DNA of 32,000 nucleotides from Candidatus Saccharimonadota bacterium (lineage in GTDB: Bacteria > Patescibacteriota > Saccharimonadia > Saccharimonadales > Saccharimonadaceae): the NCBI GenBank assembly GCA_002421785.1, contig DIRZ01000003.1, forward strand, positions 150,001-182,000, written 5' to 3'. This document shows, piece after piece, positions 3,323-14,170 of this stretch. The notes under the pieces were generated by a model, which saw only the letters and a program-made list of their open reading frames with translations, was not told the DNA's origin and did not search any database. How positions within the stretch are numbered: the first letter of the stretch is position 1; every line of letters begins with the position of its first letter. A program made the position numbers and the translations under genes.

Positions 3323-4069
3323 TCACGGGGAAGCAGTTGGTAGCGCCTGCTCTGAACAATCAGCGAGCACGCGGCGCATGGCCGACTTCTCCGCTTCGGT
3401 CACCCATAACGAATATTTCGCCTTCACAGCAATCTGGCGAGCAACATACTGGCACCGGAATGCTTTATTAGCCGGGAGCCATGTCGCCGCATCACCATCA
3501 CCTTTTGCTTGATTGGCTGCCCCCTCGACCGCTAGCAGCTCCAACGGATCATTTGCAAACGCAATCCGCTGCTCAAGCGTCAGTTGCTGAGCGCCAGTCT
3601 GCCAGGCGTTGCTCAGCGCGACCACATGGTCAATTTGCACCAGGTCGCTCGTGTTAGCCCCACGAGTAAAACTAATCGTCGTTCCCGTGTAGGGGTCGGC
3701 CAATACACCAGTCGTCACCTTGCAGCTACTATTCACCGTTACCTCCACAAGATCGCGATGAAGAATAATATTGCGGGTATCACAGCCACCCGTCAGCAAC
3801 CATCCATCGCCGAACATCGCGCGATTATACCCAGTTTTGGGTGCGCGACCCTTAATAGGGAGTGTATTCAGAATGTCGATAGCCAGCTGGGGGGAGTCCG
3901 TCGATGCGGATGCCGTCGCGGCGACCGAAGTTTGCTTTGCCTCAGCCGGCGTGGTGGGCTGAGGTGAGCGAGACGTGTCAGGGACATGGGCCGATTGGCT
4001 CTGAAAAACCATCACAACTACCGCTACTGCGATGAGTAGTATACCCGTTATTCTTCGCCTCCGCTGCAT
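3323..4069 (-). CDS. membrane-anchored/secreted DUF1524 (HNH-type, GmrSD C-terminal-like) nuclease
   Basis: 248 aa. An N-terminal TM helix ITGILLIAVAVVVMVF is followed by a low-complexity linker. Nuclease motifs follow: GGCDTRN, QIDHVVALSNAWQTGA and EGAANQAKGDGDAATWLP. Confidence 0.75.
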   Translation of the reverse strand: MQRRRRITGILLIAVAVVVMVFQSQSAHVPDTSRSPQPTTPAEAKQTSVAATASASTDSPQLAIDILNTLPIKGRAPKTGYNRAMFGDGWLLTGGCDTRNIILHRDLVEVTVNSSCKVTTGVLADPYTGTTISFTRGANTSDLVQIDHVVALSNAWQTGAQQLTLEQRIAFANDPLELLAVEGAANQAKGDGDAATWLPANKAFRCQYVARQIAVKAKYSLWVTEAEKSAMRRVLADCSEQALPTASP

Positions 4070-4138: not shown

Positions 4139-6655
4139 ATGCAAGTTACTCGCCTCTACCCACATTTCCAACCCTCAAATTATGATTTATTTTGGGATCT
4201 ATCCGACATCTCGAATCGACGTATTCGAGGCGCTGCAACCATCGCAGGCATAGCAAGCGGCACCGACGAACTGCGGCTTCATGCCAAGGAACTAGATATC
4301 ATATCAGTCACATTAAATGATATACCCGTCGCCGACTTCCGTACTGAGGGCGACGAGCTCGTGATATCAGCACGAGTGAACGGCGCGACGACCGTGCACA
4401 TCGATTTTAGCCTGACAGTCACCGACGCGATGCATGGCATATACCCATGCTACTACACGCTCGATGGCATACGTCACGAACTGTACGCCACTCAATTCGA
4501 AAGCCACCATGCACGCGAAGCATTCCCCTGTATTGATGAACCAGAAGCGAAGGCAACCTATACCGTCAGCCTCAAAACCACTGATGGCTTGCAGGTGCTC
4601 GGCAACATGCCCGTGGCATCAACGCAGCTACTGGGTGCAAGCCGTACGACAACCTTTGTTGCCACACCACGTATGAGCAGCTATCTCGTCGCATTTGTTG
4701 TTGGCGATTTGCAACGCGCAACCACCACGACGCAAAGTGGTGTGGAAGTGAATGTCTATGCGACCAAAGCACATCCCGCCGTTGCCCTCAATTGGGCGCT
4801 CGAGCACGCAGCCCAGACGATTGACTACTTCGATGATTATTTCGGCGTTCCTTACCCGCTCCCTAAAAGCGATCATGTTGCCCTGCCGGACTTTAGTAGC
4901 GGCGCCATGGAAAACTGGGGGCTCATTACCTACCGTGAAATTGCGCTGCTCGCCGATCCTACTACCGTAAGCATCGGGAACAAGCAGTATGTTGCTGAAG
5001 TCGTCGCGCACGAACTCAGCCACCAATGGTTTGGCAACCTGGTAACCATGAAGTGGTGGGACAACCTTTGGCTCAACGAAAGTTTTGCAACAATCATGGA
5101 GTATCTGGCACCTAATAATTTTCACCCAGACTGGGACTTATGGTTTGAGTTTAGTACAAACGAGGGCGTTATGGCACTTCGACGCGACTGCATTGATGGC
5201 GTCCAACCGGTGCAGGTCGCGGTCAACCATCCAGATGAAATTAACTCATTGTTTGACGGCGCCATCGTGTACGCCAAGGGTGGACGATTAATGCGTATGA
5301 TGCAGACCTGGATTGGCGAAACCGCCTTCCGCAAAGGCCTAAAAGACTACTTTAGCTCGCACCAATACAGCAACACCACTGGCGATGATCTATGGGATGC
5401 TCTTTCTGCCGCGAGCGGTAAGGACGTCGGCGCCCTCATGAACACATGGATCTCACAAAGTGGTTACCCGGTCGTTCATGCCGCACTGGCAAACGGACAA
5501 CTTACCCTGCGTCAAGAGCAGTTCTTCGTTGGTCCCCACGAACCGTCCAGCAAGCTGTGGCCAATCCCGCTGCGCGCAAACCAAGCCGACCTACCCGAAC
5601 TGCTCGACACTGCATCTCTCACAGTATCTTTTACTAGCACAGACGCGCTTCATCTCAACGCAGACGACAGTGGGCACTACATTGTTAACTACGATGATGA
5701 GCTACGTTCACGAATCATCGCTGAGCTCAAAGCGGGCAACGTAAGCAATATCCAGCGCGCTCAATTCCTGCACGAACAAATGATGCTGGCGCGCGGTGGG
5801 TATACGAGTAGCGCCCAACTCATTGAACTACTCGATGCATACCGCGATGAAAGCAACGAAAAAGTTTGGGGGATGATTTCACTTGCCATTGCCGATTTAA
5901 AGCGATTTGTCGAAACGAACGATGCCGCCGAAGTGAAACTGCGGCGCTTCGTCGGCTCGCTTGCCGAAAAACAATTTACCCGCCTTGGATGGGAAAAGCT
6001 TGATGGCGAAAGCGAAGATGACACACAGCTTCGTGGCACCATCGTCGGCTGTATGCTCTATAGCGAGCGACCAGAAATCATTGCGCACGCCATCGAATTG
6101 TACTCTCACAATACTCTTGAGCAACTCGACCCAGAACTTCGCAGTCTTATTATGGGCGCCGCCGTTCGCCACGGATCAGACGCCACGGTCGTTGATACGC
6201 TGATTACAACGTATCAGACTACCAGCGCTACCGATATTCAAAGCGATATCACCAGCGCGGTCACCTCAAGCAAAGACCCGGGCGTGTTGCAACGACTGAT
6301 CACCATGTTGACCGATACTAAAATAATTCGCTCACAGGATACCGTCAGGTGGTATGTCAACCTACTCCGTAACCGCGAGGGGCGCAGTGCCGCCTGGCAA
6401 TGGCTACGCGACAACTGGGCATGGATCGAAACGACGTTCGCAAGTGACAAAAGCCACGATTACTTCCCTCGATATTCTGCGAATATTCTTGGTACGCAGC
6501 GTCAACTGCAAGAATATAAAGACTTTTTTACGCCTCTTCGTGACAACCCATCGCTTACCCGAGCCATCGACATGGGCATCCTGGACCTCGAGGGCAGAAT
6601 TGCGATTATCGAACGCGACACGCCTGCGGTCATCGCCGCTCTAAACAAGTTCTAG
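4139..6655 (+). CDS. pepN: aminopeptidase N (M1 family zinc metallopeptidase)
   Basis: Carries the GAMENWG exopeptidase motif and the HELSHQWFGNLVTMKWWDNLWLNESFA zinc site (HEXXH-X18-E), with a long ERAP1-like C-terminal domain. The ORF-track start at 4088 is the alternative. Confidence 0.92.
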   Translation: MQVTRLYPHFQPSNYDLFWDLSDISNRRIRGAATIAGIASGTDELRLHAKELDIISVTLNDIPVADFRTEGDELVISARVNGATTVHIDFSLTVTDAMHGIYPCYYTLDGIRHELYATQFESHHAREAFPCIDEPEAKATYTVSLKTTDGLQVLGNMPVASTQLLGASRTTTFVATPRMSSYLVAFVVGDLQRATTTTQSGVEVNVYATKAHPAVALNWALEHAAQTIDYFDDYFGVPYPLPKSDHVALPDFSSGAMENWGLITYREIALLADPTTVSIGNKQYVAEVVAHELSHQWFGNLVTMKWWDNLWLNESFATIMEYLAPNNFHPDWDLWFEFSTNEGVMALRRDCIDGVQPVQVAVNHPDEINSLFDGAIVYAKGGRLMRMMQTWIGETAFRKGLKDYFSSHQYSNTTGDDLWDALSAASGKDVGALMNTWISQSGYPVVHAALANGQLTLRQEQFFVGPHEPSSKLWPIPLRANQADLPELLDTASLTVSFTSTDALHLNADDSGHYIVNYDDELRSRIIAELKAGNVSNIQRAQFLHEQMMLARGGYTSSAQLIELLDAYRDESNEKVWGMISLAIADLKRFVETNDAAEVKLRRFVGSLAEKQFTRLGWEKLDGESEDDTQLRGTIVGCMLYSERPEIIAHAIELYSHNTLEQLDPELRSLIMGAAVRHGSDATVVDTLITTYQTTSATDIQSDITSAVTSSKDPGVLQRLITMLTDTKIIRSQDTVRWYVNLLRNREGRSAAWQWLRDNWAWIETTFASDKSHDYFPRYSANILGTQRQLQEYKDFFTPLRDNPSLTRAIDMGILDLEGRIAIIERDTPAVIAALNKF

Positions 6656-7603
6656 GTAGTCCACGAGCTCAGGTGTATCACCCGTCGTCGCCACAACGGA
6701 AAGCCGCATGTCGTATCCGGGATGTTTCATAGCGTACAATTCCGCAGCAAACGTCATTTGCTTCAATTTAGTTGGGGTAACTGCCGCAAACCCATCGCCG
6801 CTCGCGTTATTCCGACGGTGTTTTACTTCCGTAAAATAGAGGGTATTATCAAGCATAGAAATAATGTCAATCTCGCACCACTTAGTGCGCCAGTTTCGCT
6901 CCAAGATTGTGTGCCCTCTCCGTTTCAGTTCTTCCGTGGCAACGTTTTCGCTGGCGTCGCCCACAGCTTTTGTTGTTCTCCGGTCGACAATCTGGCCATC
7001 TTCTCCCACCGTGACTACCGGTTGAGCCTCTGGGAGATTCGTGCGATACTTCTTCAAGGGCGCAAAACTCAACCGATGGAGTGGCGTGACGCCCAATCGC
7101 TCAATTGCTAGGCGATGCGCTGCCACTCCGTACCCGGCATGACGGGAAAATCCATAGCCCGGATATGCATCATCCTGTTCGCTCATATATGTATCGCGCG
7201 CCACCTTTGCGACGATGCTCGCCGCGCTGACGCTTGGCACGAGCAAATCGGCTTTCGCAAGTGTCGTCACATACTTTTCCAGTGGAGTGCCAGCTAGCAA
7301 GTTAATCGTACCGTCAATAATAATTTCATGGTATGGTACTGTGATTTGTTTCACAGCCCGCCGCGTCGCAAGCCGTAATGCCTCGCTCATGCCAACCTCA
7401 TCGAGTTCCTCGGCGCTAACCCACCCAAGTGCAACCGCGCTTGCCCGGGAATTGATTTCAGGCACCAGTCGTTCGCGTTGCCTTTTTGTCAACTTCTTGC
7501 TATCGGTCAGTCCGTCTACAGTTGCGCCGTTCAGAACAACCGCGCCCACAACAAGCGGCCCCGCCCAAGGCCCACGGCCAACTTCATCTATCCCAAGTAT
7601 CAT
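6641..7603 (-). CDS. rnhB: ribonuclease HII fused to a C-terminal YraN/UPF0102-like (PD-(D/E)xK) domain
   Basis: The N-terminal part is RNase HII (ILGIDEVGRGPWAGPLVVGAVVL, DSKKLT, ASIVAKV.RD). The C-terminal ~100 aa is YraN-like (ATEELKRRGHTILERNWRTKWCEIDIIS...LYFTEVKHRR...AVTPTKLKQM). I chose ATG 7603 (TACACT-N6). The track start at 7627 is the alternative. Confidence 0.85.
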   Translation of the reverse strand: MILGIDEVGRGPWAGPLVVGAVVLNGATVDGLTDSKKLTKRQRERLVPEINSRASAVALGWVSAEELDEVGMSEALRLATRRAVKQITVPYHEIIIDGTINLLAGTPLEKYVTTLAKADLLVPSVSAASIVAKVARDTYMSEQDDAYPGYGFSRHAGYGVAAHRLAIERLGVTPLHRLSFAPLKKYRTNLPEAQPVVTVGEDGQIVDRRTTKAVGDASENVATEELKRRGHTILERNWRTKWCEIDIISMLDNTLYFTEVKHRRNNASGDGFAAVTPTKLKQMTFAAELYAMKHPGYDMRLSVVATTGDTPELVDYLELV

Positions 7604-7609
7604 GCTTCT

Positions 7610-7615
7610 AGTGTA
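7610..7615 (-). promoter_or_regulatory. -10 TACACT, 6 nt upstream of rnhB ATG 7603
   Basis: The minus strand reads ctgTACACTagaagcATG. Confidence 0.4.
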
Positions 7616-7620
7616 CAGTA

Positions 7621-7649
7621 TTGACATTGTGCTTATTTATTGCTATAAT
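7621..7649 (+). promoter_or_regulatory. consensus sigma70-type promoter TTGACA-17-TATAAT (with TGc extension)
   Basis: TTGACA lies at 7621-7626 and TATAAT at 7644-7649, separated by a 17-nt spacer. The SD GGCAGGAG (7680-7686) and ATG 7689 follow. Confidence 0.7.
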
Positions 7650-7688
7650 ATATATATTGGTTCTCCACTCTAGTGAAAGGCAGGAGCC

Positions 7689-7970
7689 ATGTCCGACTCA
7701 CTCTCGTTGACTGAAATGATCGAGGTCGCCAAACTGGCGACCACTACCGCGCTCAGCACCAAGCACACCGGTGACGGACGCGTGATCGTCCACCTCCGGA
7801 CCACCAACGGACGCCAGGTGGGCAGTGCGTCCTCGGTCCTGTCGCTCGCCGGCTGCAAGGAGGTCATCGACGCGTTCGATCCCGATGGCTCTATCCGAGC
7901 GAACGCCCGGGCGGCCCGGGAACGTCGAGGCCTGCGCACCCCGACCGACATCGCACTCTACCGCACGTGA
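7689..7970 (+). CDS. hypothetical 93-aa protein encoded in a GC-rich (about 65%) cassette
   Basis: It has its own consensus promoter, an AGGAG SD 3 nt from the ATG, and a strong terminator directly after the stop. Third codon positions are almost all G/C in this frame. I recognised no family. Confidence 0.65.
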   Translation: MSDSLSLTEMIEVAKLATTTALSTKHTGDGRVIVHLRTTNGRQVGSASSVLSLAGCKEVIDAFDPDGSIRANARAARERRGLRTPTDIALYRT

Positions 7971-7975
7971 GTACT

Positions 7976-8021
7976 GGGGTGCGTTCAGGCCAACAGGTCT
8001 GAACGCACCCCACTTTTATTT
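7976..8021 (+). terminator. rho-independent terminator of the 93-aa gene
   Basis: GGGGTGCGTTCAGGCC-AACA-GGTCTGAACGCACCCC forms a 16-bp stem with one G-U pair, followed by ACTTTTATTT. Confidence 0.85.
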
Positions 8022-8025
8022 ACCT

Positions 8026-8055
8026 AAAAATATCCCCGGATTCGGGGATATTTTA
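8026..8055 (-). terminator. terminator of rplS (hairpin usable in both directions)
   Basis: AAAATATCCCC-GGATTC-GGGGATATTTT forms an 11-bp stem with A/T runs on both sides. It begins 15 nt after the rplS stop. Confidence 0.75.
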
Positions 8056-8069
8056 GTGAGTTCAAGTGA

Positions 8070-8594
8070 TTAGCTGTTTTGTGCGTGACGTGCTTCGACT
8101 TCAGCGGCCTGCGCATCAAGCTTTGCCTGCTCGGCATCTTTTTCGGCTTGGCGTGCAGCTGCTTCAGCGGCTTTCTCTTCTTTGATACGTGCTTCGTCTT
8201 CGGCAACGTGAGCGTCTTTGATCGCATTCACTGCTTCACGGTCAAACTGCACCGCTGTCAAACGTGCGCTCTTACCGCTGCGCTGGCGCAGGTAGCTAAG
8301 GAAGTTACGGCGAACTTTGCTGCGGCGAACAATTTCAACCTTCTCAACAAGGGGGCTATGAAGCAAGAAGCTTTTTTCAACACCAACACCGCTGGTAATT
8401 TTACGCACGGTGATACGGTTTGTGTGCTGACCCTTGTTATCGGTGCGGATGACGACACCTTCAAAAATCTGGATACGCTCTTTAGCACCTTCTTTAATCT
8501 TTTGGTGAACACGAACGGTGTCACCGCTACGTGCGTCAACGACTTGCTTCTTTTTCTGCTCGTCGTTTACTTTTTGAATCAATGCAAAACTCAT
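8070..8594 (-). CDS. rplS: 50S ribosomal protein L19 with a ~60-aa Ala/Glu/Lys/Gln-rich C-terminal extension
   Basis: The L19 core is GDTVRVHQKIKEGAKERIQIFEGVVIR...ITVRKI.SGVGVEKSFLLHSP.VEKVEIVRRSKVRRNFLSYLR. The tail is DAHVAEDEARIKEEKAAEAAARQAEKDAEQAKLDAQAAEVEARHAQNS. Confidence 0.95.
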   Translation of the reverse strand: MSFALIQKVNDEQKKKQVVDARSGDTVRVHQKIKEGAKERIQIFEGVVIRTDNKGQHTNRITVRKITSGVGVEKSFLLHSPLVEKVEIVRRSKVRRNFLSYLRQRSGKSARLTAVQFDREAVNAIKDAHVAEDEARIKEEKAAEAAARQAEKDAEQAKLDAQAAEVEARHAQNS

Positions 8595-12739: not shown

Positions 12740-13225
12740 ATGCCCGAAATCATTGTTATCGCGCACAATATCCGCAGCACACACAACGTGGGGAGCATTT
12801 TTCGTACCTGCGAGGGCTTTGGCGTGAATCGTCTACTTCTTACCGGCTATACGCCCTATCCGCTACTCAAAAATGATAGTCGACTTCCCCATATATCAGA
12901 GAAACTCACTGCTCAAATCCACAAAACCGCCCTGGGAGCGGAGACGATGGTTCCCTTCGAATACCACGAAGAACCCAATCTCGTGGCGATAGCCCGCGAC
13001 GGATATGAAATTGTCGCACTCGAACAGGCGCCAACAAGCATCAGCCTTCGGGACTACCATGCACCGCAAAAGCTGGCACTTCTTTTGGGTGAAGAAGTTC
13101 ATGGCATCACGAATGAGCTACTGAAGCAGTGTACAACCATCCTTGAAATACCCATGGTCGGAACCAAGGAATCATTCAATGTTAGTGTTGCGACGGGTAT
13201 CGCCCTCTACGCGCTATCAGCCTAG
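12740..13225 (+). CDS. SpoU/TrmH family RNA 2'-O-methyltransferase
   Basis: 161 aa with the SPOUT motifs NVGSIFRTCEGFGV, LLLGEEVHGI and IPMVGTKESFNVSVATGIALY. Confidence 0.85.
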   Translation: MPEIIVIAHNIRSTHNVGSIFRTCEGFGVNRLLLTGYTPYPLLKNDSRLPHISEKLTAQIHKTALGAETMVPFEYHEEPNLVAIARDGYEIVALEQAPTSISLRDYHAPQKLALLLGEEVHGITNELLKQCTTILEIPMVGTKESFNVSVATGIALYALSA

Positions 13226-14170
13226 CAACGTATCGTCAACGTGGAGCGCTTCTGATCTAGCCCTCCAGCCTTCGTACTCGTGGACGCGCGATTCTAAGAT
13301 TGCTGCTGCGTCCTGCTGGGCACTGTCATCACCGAGCAGTGCGTCAGCGAGGGTTTGTCCACCCAGCGCTTCATATCGACGCCCCGTCATCTCATACACC
13401 GATTGCGCTGGCCAGCTCGCATCGATGATGCGCGCTACCGCGTCTTCATGCCTCGTTGTCGCAAACAGTGTCACAAGCTCCTTAGCCCGCTGTTCGTTCT
13501 GCTCAACATACGATAGAGGCTCATCGCCCAGTAGTAGCGCGACTGTGTCGAGGTATTCATAAACAGCTTCGTCAGTGAGTGGATCAACCTCATTTTTCCC
13601 ATTTCCTTCATACCCGGTCTCTGCATAGTCCGCAACCCATACGTTATTTCGCACAGTTATGTTATCGGGTGCCATCGATGATCCGTACATGCAAATACTT
13701 TCCGAAAATACATGGCCGTCGCAATCATAGTGAAAAGTAACGTCCATCTGCCTCGCGACGTCATTCGAACCCTCATATAGCTTATATGGTCGCGGGTAGG
13801 CAATCTCCGTTCGATCAGTGTCTGTGTATCGAATTTTTTCATAATCCCAGCCCCATGCTCGGATTGATACACCAACTAGTGCCGAATGGTCCTTCCGGAG
13901 GTCAAGTACTGGGTAGTGTTCGCCGTTGGAAGGTATCGCAAGTTGTTCGTCGGCACGGGCCAGCACACTCCCGATGCGAGACGCGGCAACATTACTATAT
14001 ATCGCATCCACATCACCCTCGACCACCATATCAACATAAGTTAGGCCGTAGTCGGGATCACGATGCTCGAGGATTGCATCGGTGAGTGCAAAAAAGTCAG
14101 CCTGCGCCGGCGAGAGCTCATGGTCATAGCAATCTTCTGCGGGGGTAATTATTCGTTTTGGTCGTTCCAT
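13217..14170 (-). CDS. hypothetical acidic protein (317 aa), C-terminus resembling DUF2384 (Xre/MbcA/ParS antitoxin C-terminal domain)
   Basis: It has a canonical promoter and a GGAG SD. The C-terminal segment YEALGGQTLADALLGDDSAQQDAAAILESRVHEYEG resembles the aLgG.tP..ll....g...v...L.ri..G pattern of DUF2384. I did not recognise the N-terminal ~230 aa. Confidence 0.6.
   Translation of the reverse strand: MERPKRIITPAEDCYDHELSPAQADFFALTDAILEHRDPDYGLTYVDMVVEGDVDAIYSNVAASRIGSVLARADEQLAIPSNGEHYPVLDLRKDHSALVGVSIRAWGWDYEKIRYTDTDRTEIAYPRPYKLYEGSNDVARQMDVTFHYDCDGHVFSESICMYGSSMAPDNITVRNNVWVADYAETGYEGNGKNEVDPLTDEAVYEYLDTVALLLGDEPLSYVEQNEQRAKELVTLFATTRHEDAVARIIDASWPAQSVYEMTGRRYEALGGQTLADALLGDDSAQQDAAAILESRVHEYEGWRARSEALHVDDTLLG

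Follow-up and report, generated by a model that had tools for sequence, protein, structure and literature searches.

We analyzed a 32,000-nucleotide (nt) stretch of a Candidatus Saccharimonadota bacterium genome (assembly GCA_002421785.1, contig DIRZ01000003.1, forward-strand positions 150,001 to 182,000), referred to below as the window. Between rnhB (6641–7603, − strand) and the ribosomal protein gene rplS (8070–8594, −) lies a small gene on the + strand (7689–7970). Its product is a 93-amino-acid (aa) orphan protein marked by the motifs TK-x-TGDG and FDPDGSIR. As stated in an earlier reading of this DNA (the original prediction), the gene runs antiparallel to both neighbors; it is convergent with rplS. 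It has its own consensus promoter, one open reading frame (ORF) and its own terminator, and is indeed the self-contained single-gene unit that was described. The same reading took it for a recent acquisition, possibly from an actinobacterial host. Our analysis indicates that it is probably an old, fast-evolving orphan at the rnhB–rplS junction of part of the Saccharimonadales, and not a recent import.

Composition of the gene

The ORF clearly differs from its surroundings in base composition. Its G+C content is 185/282, or 65.6% (the earlier figure of about 65% was right, but the count of 184/282 was one too low), with 0.61, 0.55 and 0.81 at the first, second and third codon positions (GC1, GC2 and GC3). 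The whole 32-kb window has a GC content of 50.5%, and GC3 in its 23 other genes ranges from 0.45 to 0.60. The description of an atypical GC-rich ORF between rnhB and rplS (GC3 0.82) is thus confirmed. Synonymous codons were resampled from the codon usage of the window while the amino-acid sequence of the small gene was held. The expected GC3 was 0.526 ± 0.051, and not one of 20,000 simulations attained the 0.817 of the real gene. A sliding 282-nt scan of GC content reaches its maximum for the window at the small gene (0.674, approximately 4 standard deviations above the mean).

The codons end in G or C throughout (CTC/CTG, GTC, GCG/GCC, CGC/CGG, GGC, TCG), so that both GC3 and the codon table support the codon choice typical of high-GC organisms noticed earlier. 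The rplS gene shows the expected optimal codons (NAC, GGT, CGT, GTT, CTT, GCA, AGC). Those of the small gene differ from this set, and translational codon adaptation was rejected as the cause of its high GC on this ground. Arg, Ala, Thr and Gly are abundant in the protein and Lys is scarce. This GC-shifted amino-acid composition, together with the GC2 of 0.55, points to a pressure on all codon positions.

Promoter and terminators

The gene is preceded by a sigma70 promoter that reads outward from rnhB (7621–7649, +). It is composed of TTGACA (7621–7626), a 17-nt spacer and an extended −10 element, TG-c-TATAAT (7641–7649), and matches at 12 of 12 positions. When TTGACA-17-TGnTATAAT was searched for with at most one mismatch, this was the single match in 32 kb, where 0.03 would be expected by chance. 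The original prediction was correct in calling it a textbook promoter and in noting that its −35 box overlaps an upstream in-frame ATG (7625–7627) of the rnhB ORF. This promoter is kept at all loci of the family described below, and in other lineages with different cargo it recurs at a constant distance of approximately 21 nt from the rnhB ATG. From the sequence, high expression of the small gene from a conserved promoter is plausible.

With the transcription start placed from the −10 position, the predicted 5′ untranslated region (UTR) spans 7656–7688 (+) and contains the Shine–Dalgarno (SD) region and a weak hairpin. The AGGAG reported as the SD (7682–7686) is present, but it lies only 2 nt from the ATG; GAAAGG (7675–7680), 8 nt upstream, has the more canonical spacing. 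The hairpin that pairs with the SD has a folding energy of −10.4 kcal/mol (z = −1.15). We considered it as an SD-sequestering regulator and rejected it, since it is not significant and is not kept in distant members.

The intrinsic terminator of the small gene (7975–8022, +) has arms at 7975–7991 and 7996–8012, which form a GC-rich stem of 17 pairs with a 4-nt loop, followed by a T-run. A terminator had been predicted with a stem of 16 bp, one pair too few. In relatives, compensatory changes preserve the stem pairing (as in GGGGTGCGTTCAGGCC versus AGGGTGCACACAGACC). The rplS terminator (8027–8054, not assigned to a strand) is a perfect 12-bp hairpin that is conserved in relatives. Given the A-run and T-run that flank it, it could act bidirectionally. 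These two hairpins are the only repeats at the cassette.

A putative −10 box of rnhB (TACACT, 7610–7615, −) is located 6 nt before the rnhB ATG. A TACAAT/TACACT-like box occurs 6 nt ahead of the rnhB ATG in most of 75 Saccharibacteria rplS–rnhB loci from species-representative genomes, including those with an empty gap. Because the box is only 6 nt from the ATG, the rnhB mRNA may be leaderless. The ATG at 7603, which was also the start preferred in the original prediction, gives the N-terminus MILGIDEVGRG, and its conservation in relatives supports this choice.

Coding status

Nine close copies of the gene were recovered with their DNA, at 75–95% protein identity. They have no indels and no stops, and their variable sites are distributed 22/23/43 over the first, second and third codon positions. 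Pairwise ratios of nonsynonymous to synonymous divergence (dN/dS) among them lie between 0.1 and 0.6. The pooled ratio of nonsynonymous to synonymous polymorphism (pN/pS) is 0.32 in the small gene, where it stays below 1 throughout; the corresponding values are 0.14 in the N-terminal part of rnhB and 0.02 in rplS. The sense frame alone is open in all 13 distinct copies checked. The small gene is genuinely protein-coding. An overlapping antisense gene of 93 codons (7670–7951, −) was also considered, and was rejected owing to stops in the related loci L002, L003 and L008.

Distribution and age of the family

A word-indexed search of 5.8 billion clusters returned six relatives, including one in Candidatus Saccharibacteria bacterium 32-49-10. 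When 1.84 billion representatives were searched exhaustively with a HMMER profile, a few more proteins of 81–93 aa with TK-x-TGDG and FDPDGSIR were added. After another round of profile searching, the family numbered approximately 16 clusters, from which alignment A3 (16 sequences) was made. The members are 80–93 aa long, carry the conserved motifs and are encoded between rnhB (−) and rplS (−) with an outward consensus promoter. Long profile matches in multiple stretches were rejected as members; these are repeat proteins that match the short motifs. A metagenome scan with the family profile found one locus only, which was already known. Candidatus Saccharibacteria is the only named source of a homologue, and the others were assigned by flanking genes of the Saccharibacteria type. 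We consider it likely that the family is restricted to Saccharibacteria and previously undescribed.

We read all 15 informative contigs, most homologue contigs being short, low-coverage metagenome assemblies. They comprise nine close copies (L001–L008 among them) and six distant lineages (L089-93, L094, L095, L096, L098 and L099). The small gene lies between rnhB (−) and rplS (−) in one orientation in all of them; two short contigs reach one flank only. Identity to the window in the distant lineages is approximately 30–45% for the small protein, compared with 66–77% for RnhB and, where covered, 78–87% for RplS. Every family locus has a consensus-type promoter, a GC-rich terminator and a GC3 of 0.69–0.84, versus approximately 0.50 in the flanks. 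Synonymous sites are saturated at these distances, yet GC3 remains in this range; the GC-richness is therefore maintained and not a sign of fresh import.

A scan for RplS in species-representative genomes gave 80 Saccharibacteria loci, 75 of them also with rnhB. No family member was found at these 75 rplS–rnhB loci, either by tblastn or with the family hidden Markov model (HMM) on six-frame translations.

These results do not bear out the recent acquisition proposed in the original prediction, as the same locus and orientation are found in nine close copies and six distant lineages. The suggested actinobacterial donor fares no better, with no homologue outside Saccharibacteria among the 5.8 billion clusters and 1.84 billion representatives. 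Most of what that prediction had itself listed as evidence against import is what we observe. The cassette is kept at the same junction in relatives, contrary to a recent insertion, and the best homologues are of the Saccharibacteria type and not from high-GC taxa.

Recombination and GC bias

The alleles of the small gene are recombination mosaics. The four-gamete test is failed by 1514 of 2926 site pairs, and a PHI-like permutation test gives p < 0.0005. Between the window and L003, the proportion of synonymous differences (pS) is 0.011 in rnhB, 0.123 in rplS and 0.373 in the small gene. The order of divergence is reversed when the window is compared with L001. Partners that share alleles also shift along the cassette, from {L002, L004, L005} at the promoter to {window, L004, L005} at codons 52–59 and {L003, L004, L005} over the 3′ end and the terminator. 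The closest copies already show a pS of 0.2–0.4. Shifts between blocks (window 7844–7863 and 7910–8024, compared with L001–L008) point to several breakpoints within 470 nt.

At third positions, the singleton polymorphisms are 11 changes from G/C to A/T (S>W) versus 0 in the opposite direction (W>S); each of the 8 W>S variants occurs in more than one copy. Such a distribution is typical of AT-biased mutation that is countered by a fixation bias toward G/C. It fits GC-biased gene conversion (gBGC); mRNA-level selection and the slow amelioration of an ancient import are other possible sources of the GC bias. GC enrichment in recombining bacterial genes, independent of codon selection, has been described (Lassalle et al. 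2015, PMC4450053). The small gene resembles the genes of that study in that it recombines, has a raised GC3 contrary to optimal codons and shows an excess of low-frequency S>W variants. It differs in that the shift of approximately +0.29 in GC3 is far above the published genome-wide effects and is limited to 282 nt, with recombining flanks that are unaffected.

Predicted fold and function

AlphaFold2, run with the 16-sequence alignment, predicts a fold with a pLDDT of 92.3 and a pTM of 0.83, and the five models agree. The predicted topology is α1(7–15)-β1(19–26)-β2(32–40)-β3(43–51)-α2(53–63)-α3(68–79)-β4(89–91). The protein is mildly basic, with an Arg-rich α3 that is missing from shorter family members. 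As predicted earlier, it has no transmembrane (TM) segment and no signal peptide. The failure to assign it to a family in the original prediction is also borne out, as sequence libraries and fold searches gave no significant match. None of the 16 members has a Pfam match or a match to the defence families of PADLOC-DB. The window protein has no match in NCBIfam, and PHROGs gave none. The A3 profile matched none of the PDB sequences. A Foldseek search against BFVD gave nothing significant; the best match (E = 3e-3) was a 383-aa crAss001 protein with a root-mean-square deviation (rmsd) of 7 Å.

HPF/RaiA proteins (PF02482) and Rv1738 are similar in being small α/β proteins in which helices pack against a three-stranded antiparallel sheet, and the small gene adjoins a ribosomal protein gene. 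HPF/RaiA proteins bind the 30S decoding region and induce 70S or 100S hibernation. HPF-family chains are among the top Foldseek matches (8uu7_w, 8uu4_w, 6gzq_V2, 5ngm_Av, 3tqm and 4wsp; E ≥ 0.07, TM-score 0.33–0.38, rmsd approximately 12 Å). However, the order in HPF is β-α-β-β-β-α, whereas the small protein starts with a helix and has an additional α3 and β4, and it has no Pfam or PDB sequence match. Domains that resemble the double-stranded RNA-binding domain (dsRBD), such as the DCL4 dsRBD and HicA toxins, share the α1-β1-β2-β3-α2 core, with a weak Foldseek match to DCL4 (9kby_A). Here too the similarity is limited (E 0.09–0.25, TM-score 0.36), and there is no sequence-profile match, HicB partner or conserved HicA catalytic His context. 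A single ORF lies between promoter and terminator and no second frame is conserved, unlike in a HicAB-type toxin–antitoxin pair.

Conservation is highest at residues of the TGDG and FDPDGSIR loops, and these two loops may form a binding surface. Because of the dsRBD/HPF-like core of the model, the Arg-rich α3 and the neighborhood, the protein might bind RNA or the ribosome as a small, abundant component of the cytoplasm. We offer this only as a speculative assignment, in which our confidence is low. A strain-variable interaction or immunity-type role (see below) has nearly the same probability, and the rest is spread over other functions.

Proposed explanation and alternatives

We propose that the gene for a small soluble protein of 93 aa is transcribed away from rnhB by the consensus extended −10 promoter, which would stand back-to-back with the putative leaderless promoter of rnhB. 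Transcription would end at the strong terminator of the small gene, ahead of the convergent rplS. The protein evolves faster than its neighbors, still under purifying selection, and homologous recombination shuffles its alleles. The high GC at all three codon positions would be upheld over the long term by a fixation bias toward G/C, through gBGC or some form of selection, and not by host-like ancestry or codon adaptation for translation. The data show that the gene codes for protein, is old, keeps to its locus and has a conserved promoter, an atypical composition and mosaic alleles; its high expression, the cause of the GC bias and its function are inferred.

Several points weigh against this account. 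The family is patchy on the RnhB tree, a single-domain tree too weakly resolved to tell loss from transfer, and transfer between Saccharibacteria into the same position is possible. The GC3 baseline is that of the 23 other genes of the window rather than a genome-wide distribution. Part of the mosaicism could come from assembly chimerism in low-coverage contigs. The flanks in rnhB and rplS are equally mosaic and are not GC3-rich; because of this, recombination alone is insufficient as an explanation of the GC bias. Published effects of gBGC in bacteria amount to a few GC3 points, versus approximately 29 here. Slow amelioration of a GC-rich gene imported long ago would also produce the excess of S>W singletons. 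As to function, Foldseek found nothing significant in the PDB (best E = 0.07), and the functional guess is drawn from topology only, the matches to HPF, RaiA and dsRBD having TM-scores of approximately 0.35.

Amelioration leads to an alternative in which a GC-rich gene was transferred into the ancestor of the clade and then descended vertically, its GC content being a slowly decaying relic. The gene is indeed GC3-rich in all lineages examined, GC1 and GC2 are raised too in the window copy, and the third-position singletons are all S>W. With a protein identity of 30–45% and the pS of 0.2–0.4 among the closest copies, however, the synonymous sites have turned over repeatedly, yet GC3 is still 0.69–0.84 in every branch. 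No donor family is detectable. We regard such a relic as unlikely.

We also think it improbable that the gene encodes a strain-variable interaction or immunity-type factor, directed at a host, phage or competitor and subject to diversifying or balancing selection with allele exchange. Such a factor would account for mosaic alleles that are discordant with the flanks, for a protein that evolves fast relative to its neighbors and for variation that clusters at residues 44–59 (pN/pS 0.56) and 74–93 (0.35). The unrelated small genes at the same place elsewhere, which include lipoprotein-like and TM peptides (see below), would also be expected. The absence of any PADLOC, PHROG or Pfam match, of a signal peptide or TM segment and of a partner gene argues against it, as does a pN/pS below 1 everywhere.

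The original prediction favored a recent horizontal transfer from a high-GC organism, and named the actinobacterial host as a possible donor should the Saccharibacterium be an epibiont. The composition would suit such a transfer, with 65.6% GC, a GC3 of 0.82, Actinobacteria-like G/C-ending codons in all four-fold families and a GC-shifted amino-acid composition (GC2 0.55), and so would the self-contained promoter–ORF–terminator unit. Phage "morons" and other autonomous single-gene cassettes are built in the same manner, with their own strong promoter, one small ORF, their own terminator and a deviant GC content, between co-directional genes. The cassette described here differs from them in having no prophage or mobile context and no phage homologue, and its core-genome site is kept across deep divergence. 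A tblastn search of 50,697 phage records found no homologue, and a tblastn search of plasmids gave no meaningful match. The window contains no tRNA (ARAGORN), no integrase and no flanking repeats, and thus none of the usual signatures of mobility. The promoter, rich in AT and of a native style, is shared with other lineages, no homologue was identified outside Saccharibacteria, and positional orthologues exist in lineages down to 66% RnhB identity. A recent import is thus very unlikely.

Hardly credible at all is that the transcript acts as a GC-rich structured noncoding RNA (ncRNA), or as an antisense regulator of rplS/rnhB read-through, with an incidental ORF: the strong promoter and terminator, long ORFs in several frames of the GC-rich transcript and a fold of the whole transcript at z = −4.6 would agree with this, but that z is due to the terminator, the substitutions are concentrated at third positions (pN/pS 0.32), no frame other than the sense frame stays open in all copies, and distant members keep the protein motifs and a confident predicted fold, not the nucleotides. 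The coding sequence alone folds at z = −0.8 relative to shuffled controls, and a structured RNA within it was rejected on this basis. Neither the window nor 14 related loci gave an Rfam 15 match at the gathering score. Known ncRNA families were also rejected, since the cassette showed only sub-threshold Rfam noise at E ≤ 1 (Actino-pnp, 20 bits versus 48; Ms1, 17 versus 162) and ARAGORN found nothing.

The junction in other Saccharibacteria

In 21 of the 75 loci, the gap between rplS and rnhB is 67–180 bp; in the remainder, it is 300–1735 bp. The contiguous rplS–rnhB arrangement that the gene was said to interrupt thus has a counterpart in the 21 related genomes with adjacent genes. Both in the family loci and in at least 11 other species-level lineages (L011, L028, L029, L051, L052, L059, L061, L071, L073, L087 and, slightly shifted, L010), a TTGACA-like outward −35 box is present 4–5 nt beyond the −10-like box of rnhB. 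It lies approximately 21–25 nt from the rnhB ATG, and a −10 box is found 16–17 nt downstream of it.

The small ORFs behind this promoter are unrelated to one another. They would encode an 81-aa helical protein in L028 (GC3 0.74), a protein of approximately 100 aa in L010 (GC3 0.65–0.70), a 50-aa lipoprotein-like peptide in L052, a 46-aa peptide in L051 (GC3 0.74), a 57-aa acidic protein in L059 and a 101-aa protein in L087. A similar promoter in L064 lies farther from rnhB (offset 44) and precedes a gene for a 67-aa TM peptide. The promoter of L009, a metagenome-assembled genome (MAG) of Candidatus Saccharimonas aalborgensis, matches that of L089, which bears a family member, at 28 of 29 positions. 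Its cargo is an unrelated 85-aa ORF with a GC3 of 0.83, a singleton in the database of 5.8 billion clusters. The promoter thus appears to be resident and the cargo exchangeable. The outward promoter beside rnhB may be an ancient conserved "expression slot" whose cargo was repeatedly replaced or arose de novo, although we hold this view tentatively and consider it doubtful.

Other occupants of the junction were also seen. In the gap of L009 (1185–1824), a GC-rich insertion of approximately 137 nt separates the start of rnhB from the conserved outward promoter. In oral and related TM7, the gap holds a co-directional gene for a 165-aa membrane protein (L086, 4592–5089, +; L072, L080-L085, L068, L088, L064/65 and L026). 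A conserved stretch in the oral TM7 gap was considered as an ncRNA and rejected, as it is the antisense of this gene. L030-L043, one group of gut and oral MAGs, have a much larger insert in an rplS–rnhB gap of 1.57–1.73 kb, with several ORFs, including a co-directional one of 161 aa and a Cys-rich one of 116 aa.

Genes with similar properties are also present away from the junction. The 16-kb locus L089 contains two more small orphan genes for multi-TM proteins (1381–1707, −, 108 aa; 13154–13501, −, 115 aa). Both have a GC3 of 0.77, compared with approximately 0.5, in a genome of approximately 51% GC, and each is preceded by a TTGACA-17-TGnTATAAT promoter without a mismatch (−35 boxes at 1851 and 13604). 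Neither has a Pfam match, and the 115-aa protein has no plasmid match. We also observed consensus promoters before small GC3-rich ORFs in L014-L023 (approximately 2.2 kb from rplS) and in L078 (−; position 1738 on the reverse-complemented locus). Among these ORFs are ones for TM proteins of 105–130 aa (GC3 0.70–0.80) and, separately, a 146-aa ORF with a GC3 of 0.84 in a locus of 49% GC.

ORFs were called mechanically across all loci and classed as GC3-rich when their GC3 was at least 0.15 above the local median. A consensus promoter within 200 nt was found for 8 of 29 GC3-rich ORFs versus 14 of 710 (odds ratio approximately 19, Fisher p = 4e-7, uncorrected for phylogeny); four of the eight positives are family members. 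We take a wider class of strongly promoted, GC3-rich small orphans as a lead and not as a result.

Neighboring genes

The rnhB gene encodes a fusion of RNase HII (Pfam RNase_HII, 8e-37) with a UPF0102/YraN-like nuclease (UPF0102, 3e-20). The fusion is present in all Saccharibacteria loci retrieved. The 3′ end of rnhB overlaps a convergent M1-peptidase gene by 15 nt (6641–6655). In RplS, the Pfam domain Ribosomal_L19 (7.6e-38) covers residues 5–113 of 174, and is followed by an Ala/Glu/Lys-rich C-terminal tail of approximately 60 aa whose length is conserved across the Saccharibacteria loci. A degenerate direct repeat of 41 nt lies in the DNA that encodes this tail (8070–8250, −).

Elsewhere, the window carries ordinary core genes of Saccharibacteria. 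These include TGT, Vut_1, GmrSD_C, M1 peptidase, malic enzyme, T2SSE, SpoU, GatA/B and UvrB, as well as a 1229-aa ORF whose counterpart by synteny in L089 is the gene for DNA polymerase III alpha. The GmrSD_C-domain protein, of a type IV restriction endonuclease C-terminal domain family, is encoded at 3323–4069 (−) between the Vut_1 transporter and the M1 peptidase; its gene is syntenic in the distant relative L089.

Significance

The small gene resembles the taxonomically restricted orphans found at intergenic hot spots in its narrow range, small size, lack of an annotated domain, fast evolution and the varied occupants of one junction. Bacterial orphans are usually AT-rich and weakly expressed. 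In contrast to typical orphans, the small gene is GC-rich, has a consensus promoter and a confidently predicted fold, and persists across deep divergence.

Signs that would ordinarily be read as foreign origin, in this case a GC3 of 0.82 in a genome of 50% GC, codons in the style of high-GC organisms and a self-contained cassette, are misleading here, as the gene is an old resident. Composition-based calls of horizontal gene transfer, and inferences that the host of an episymbiont was the donor, need to be checked by comparison at the level of the locus. The analysis also defines an undescribed family of small proteins in an uncultured lineage, with a confidently predicted fold and probably high expression. 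It further suggests that a divergent promoter beside a probably leaderless rnhB is a conserved slot for small genes specific to particular lineages. If the wider class is real, mid-GC Saccharibacteria would contain a class of strongly promoted, GC-rich small genes with fast turnover, of which the gene of the window would be the longest-lived member. The finding raises the question of what holds a 282-nt gene approximately 30 GC3 points above its genome over the long term.

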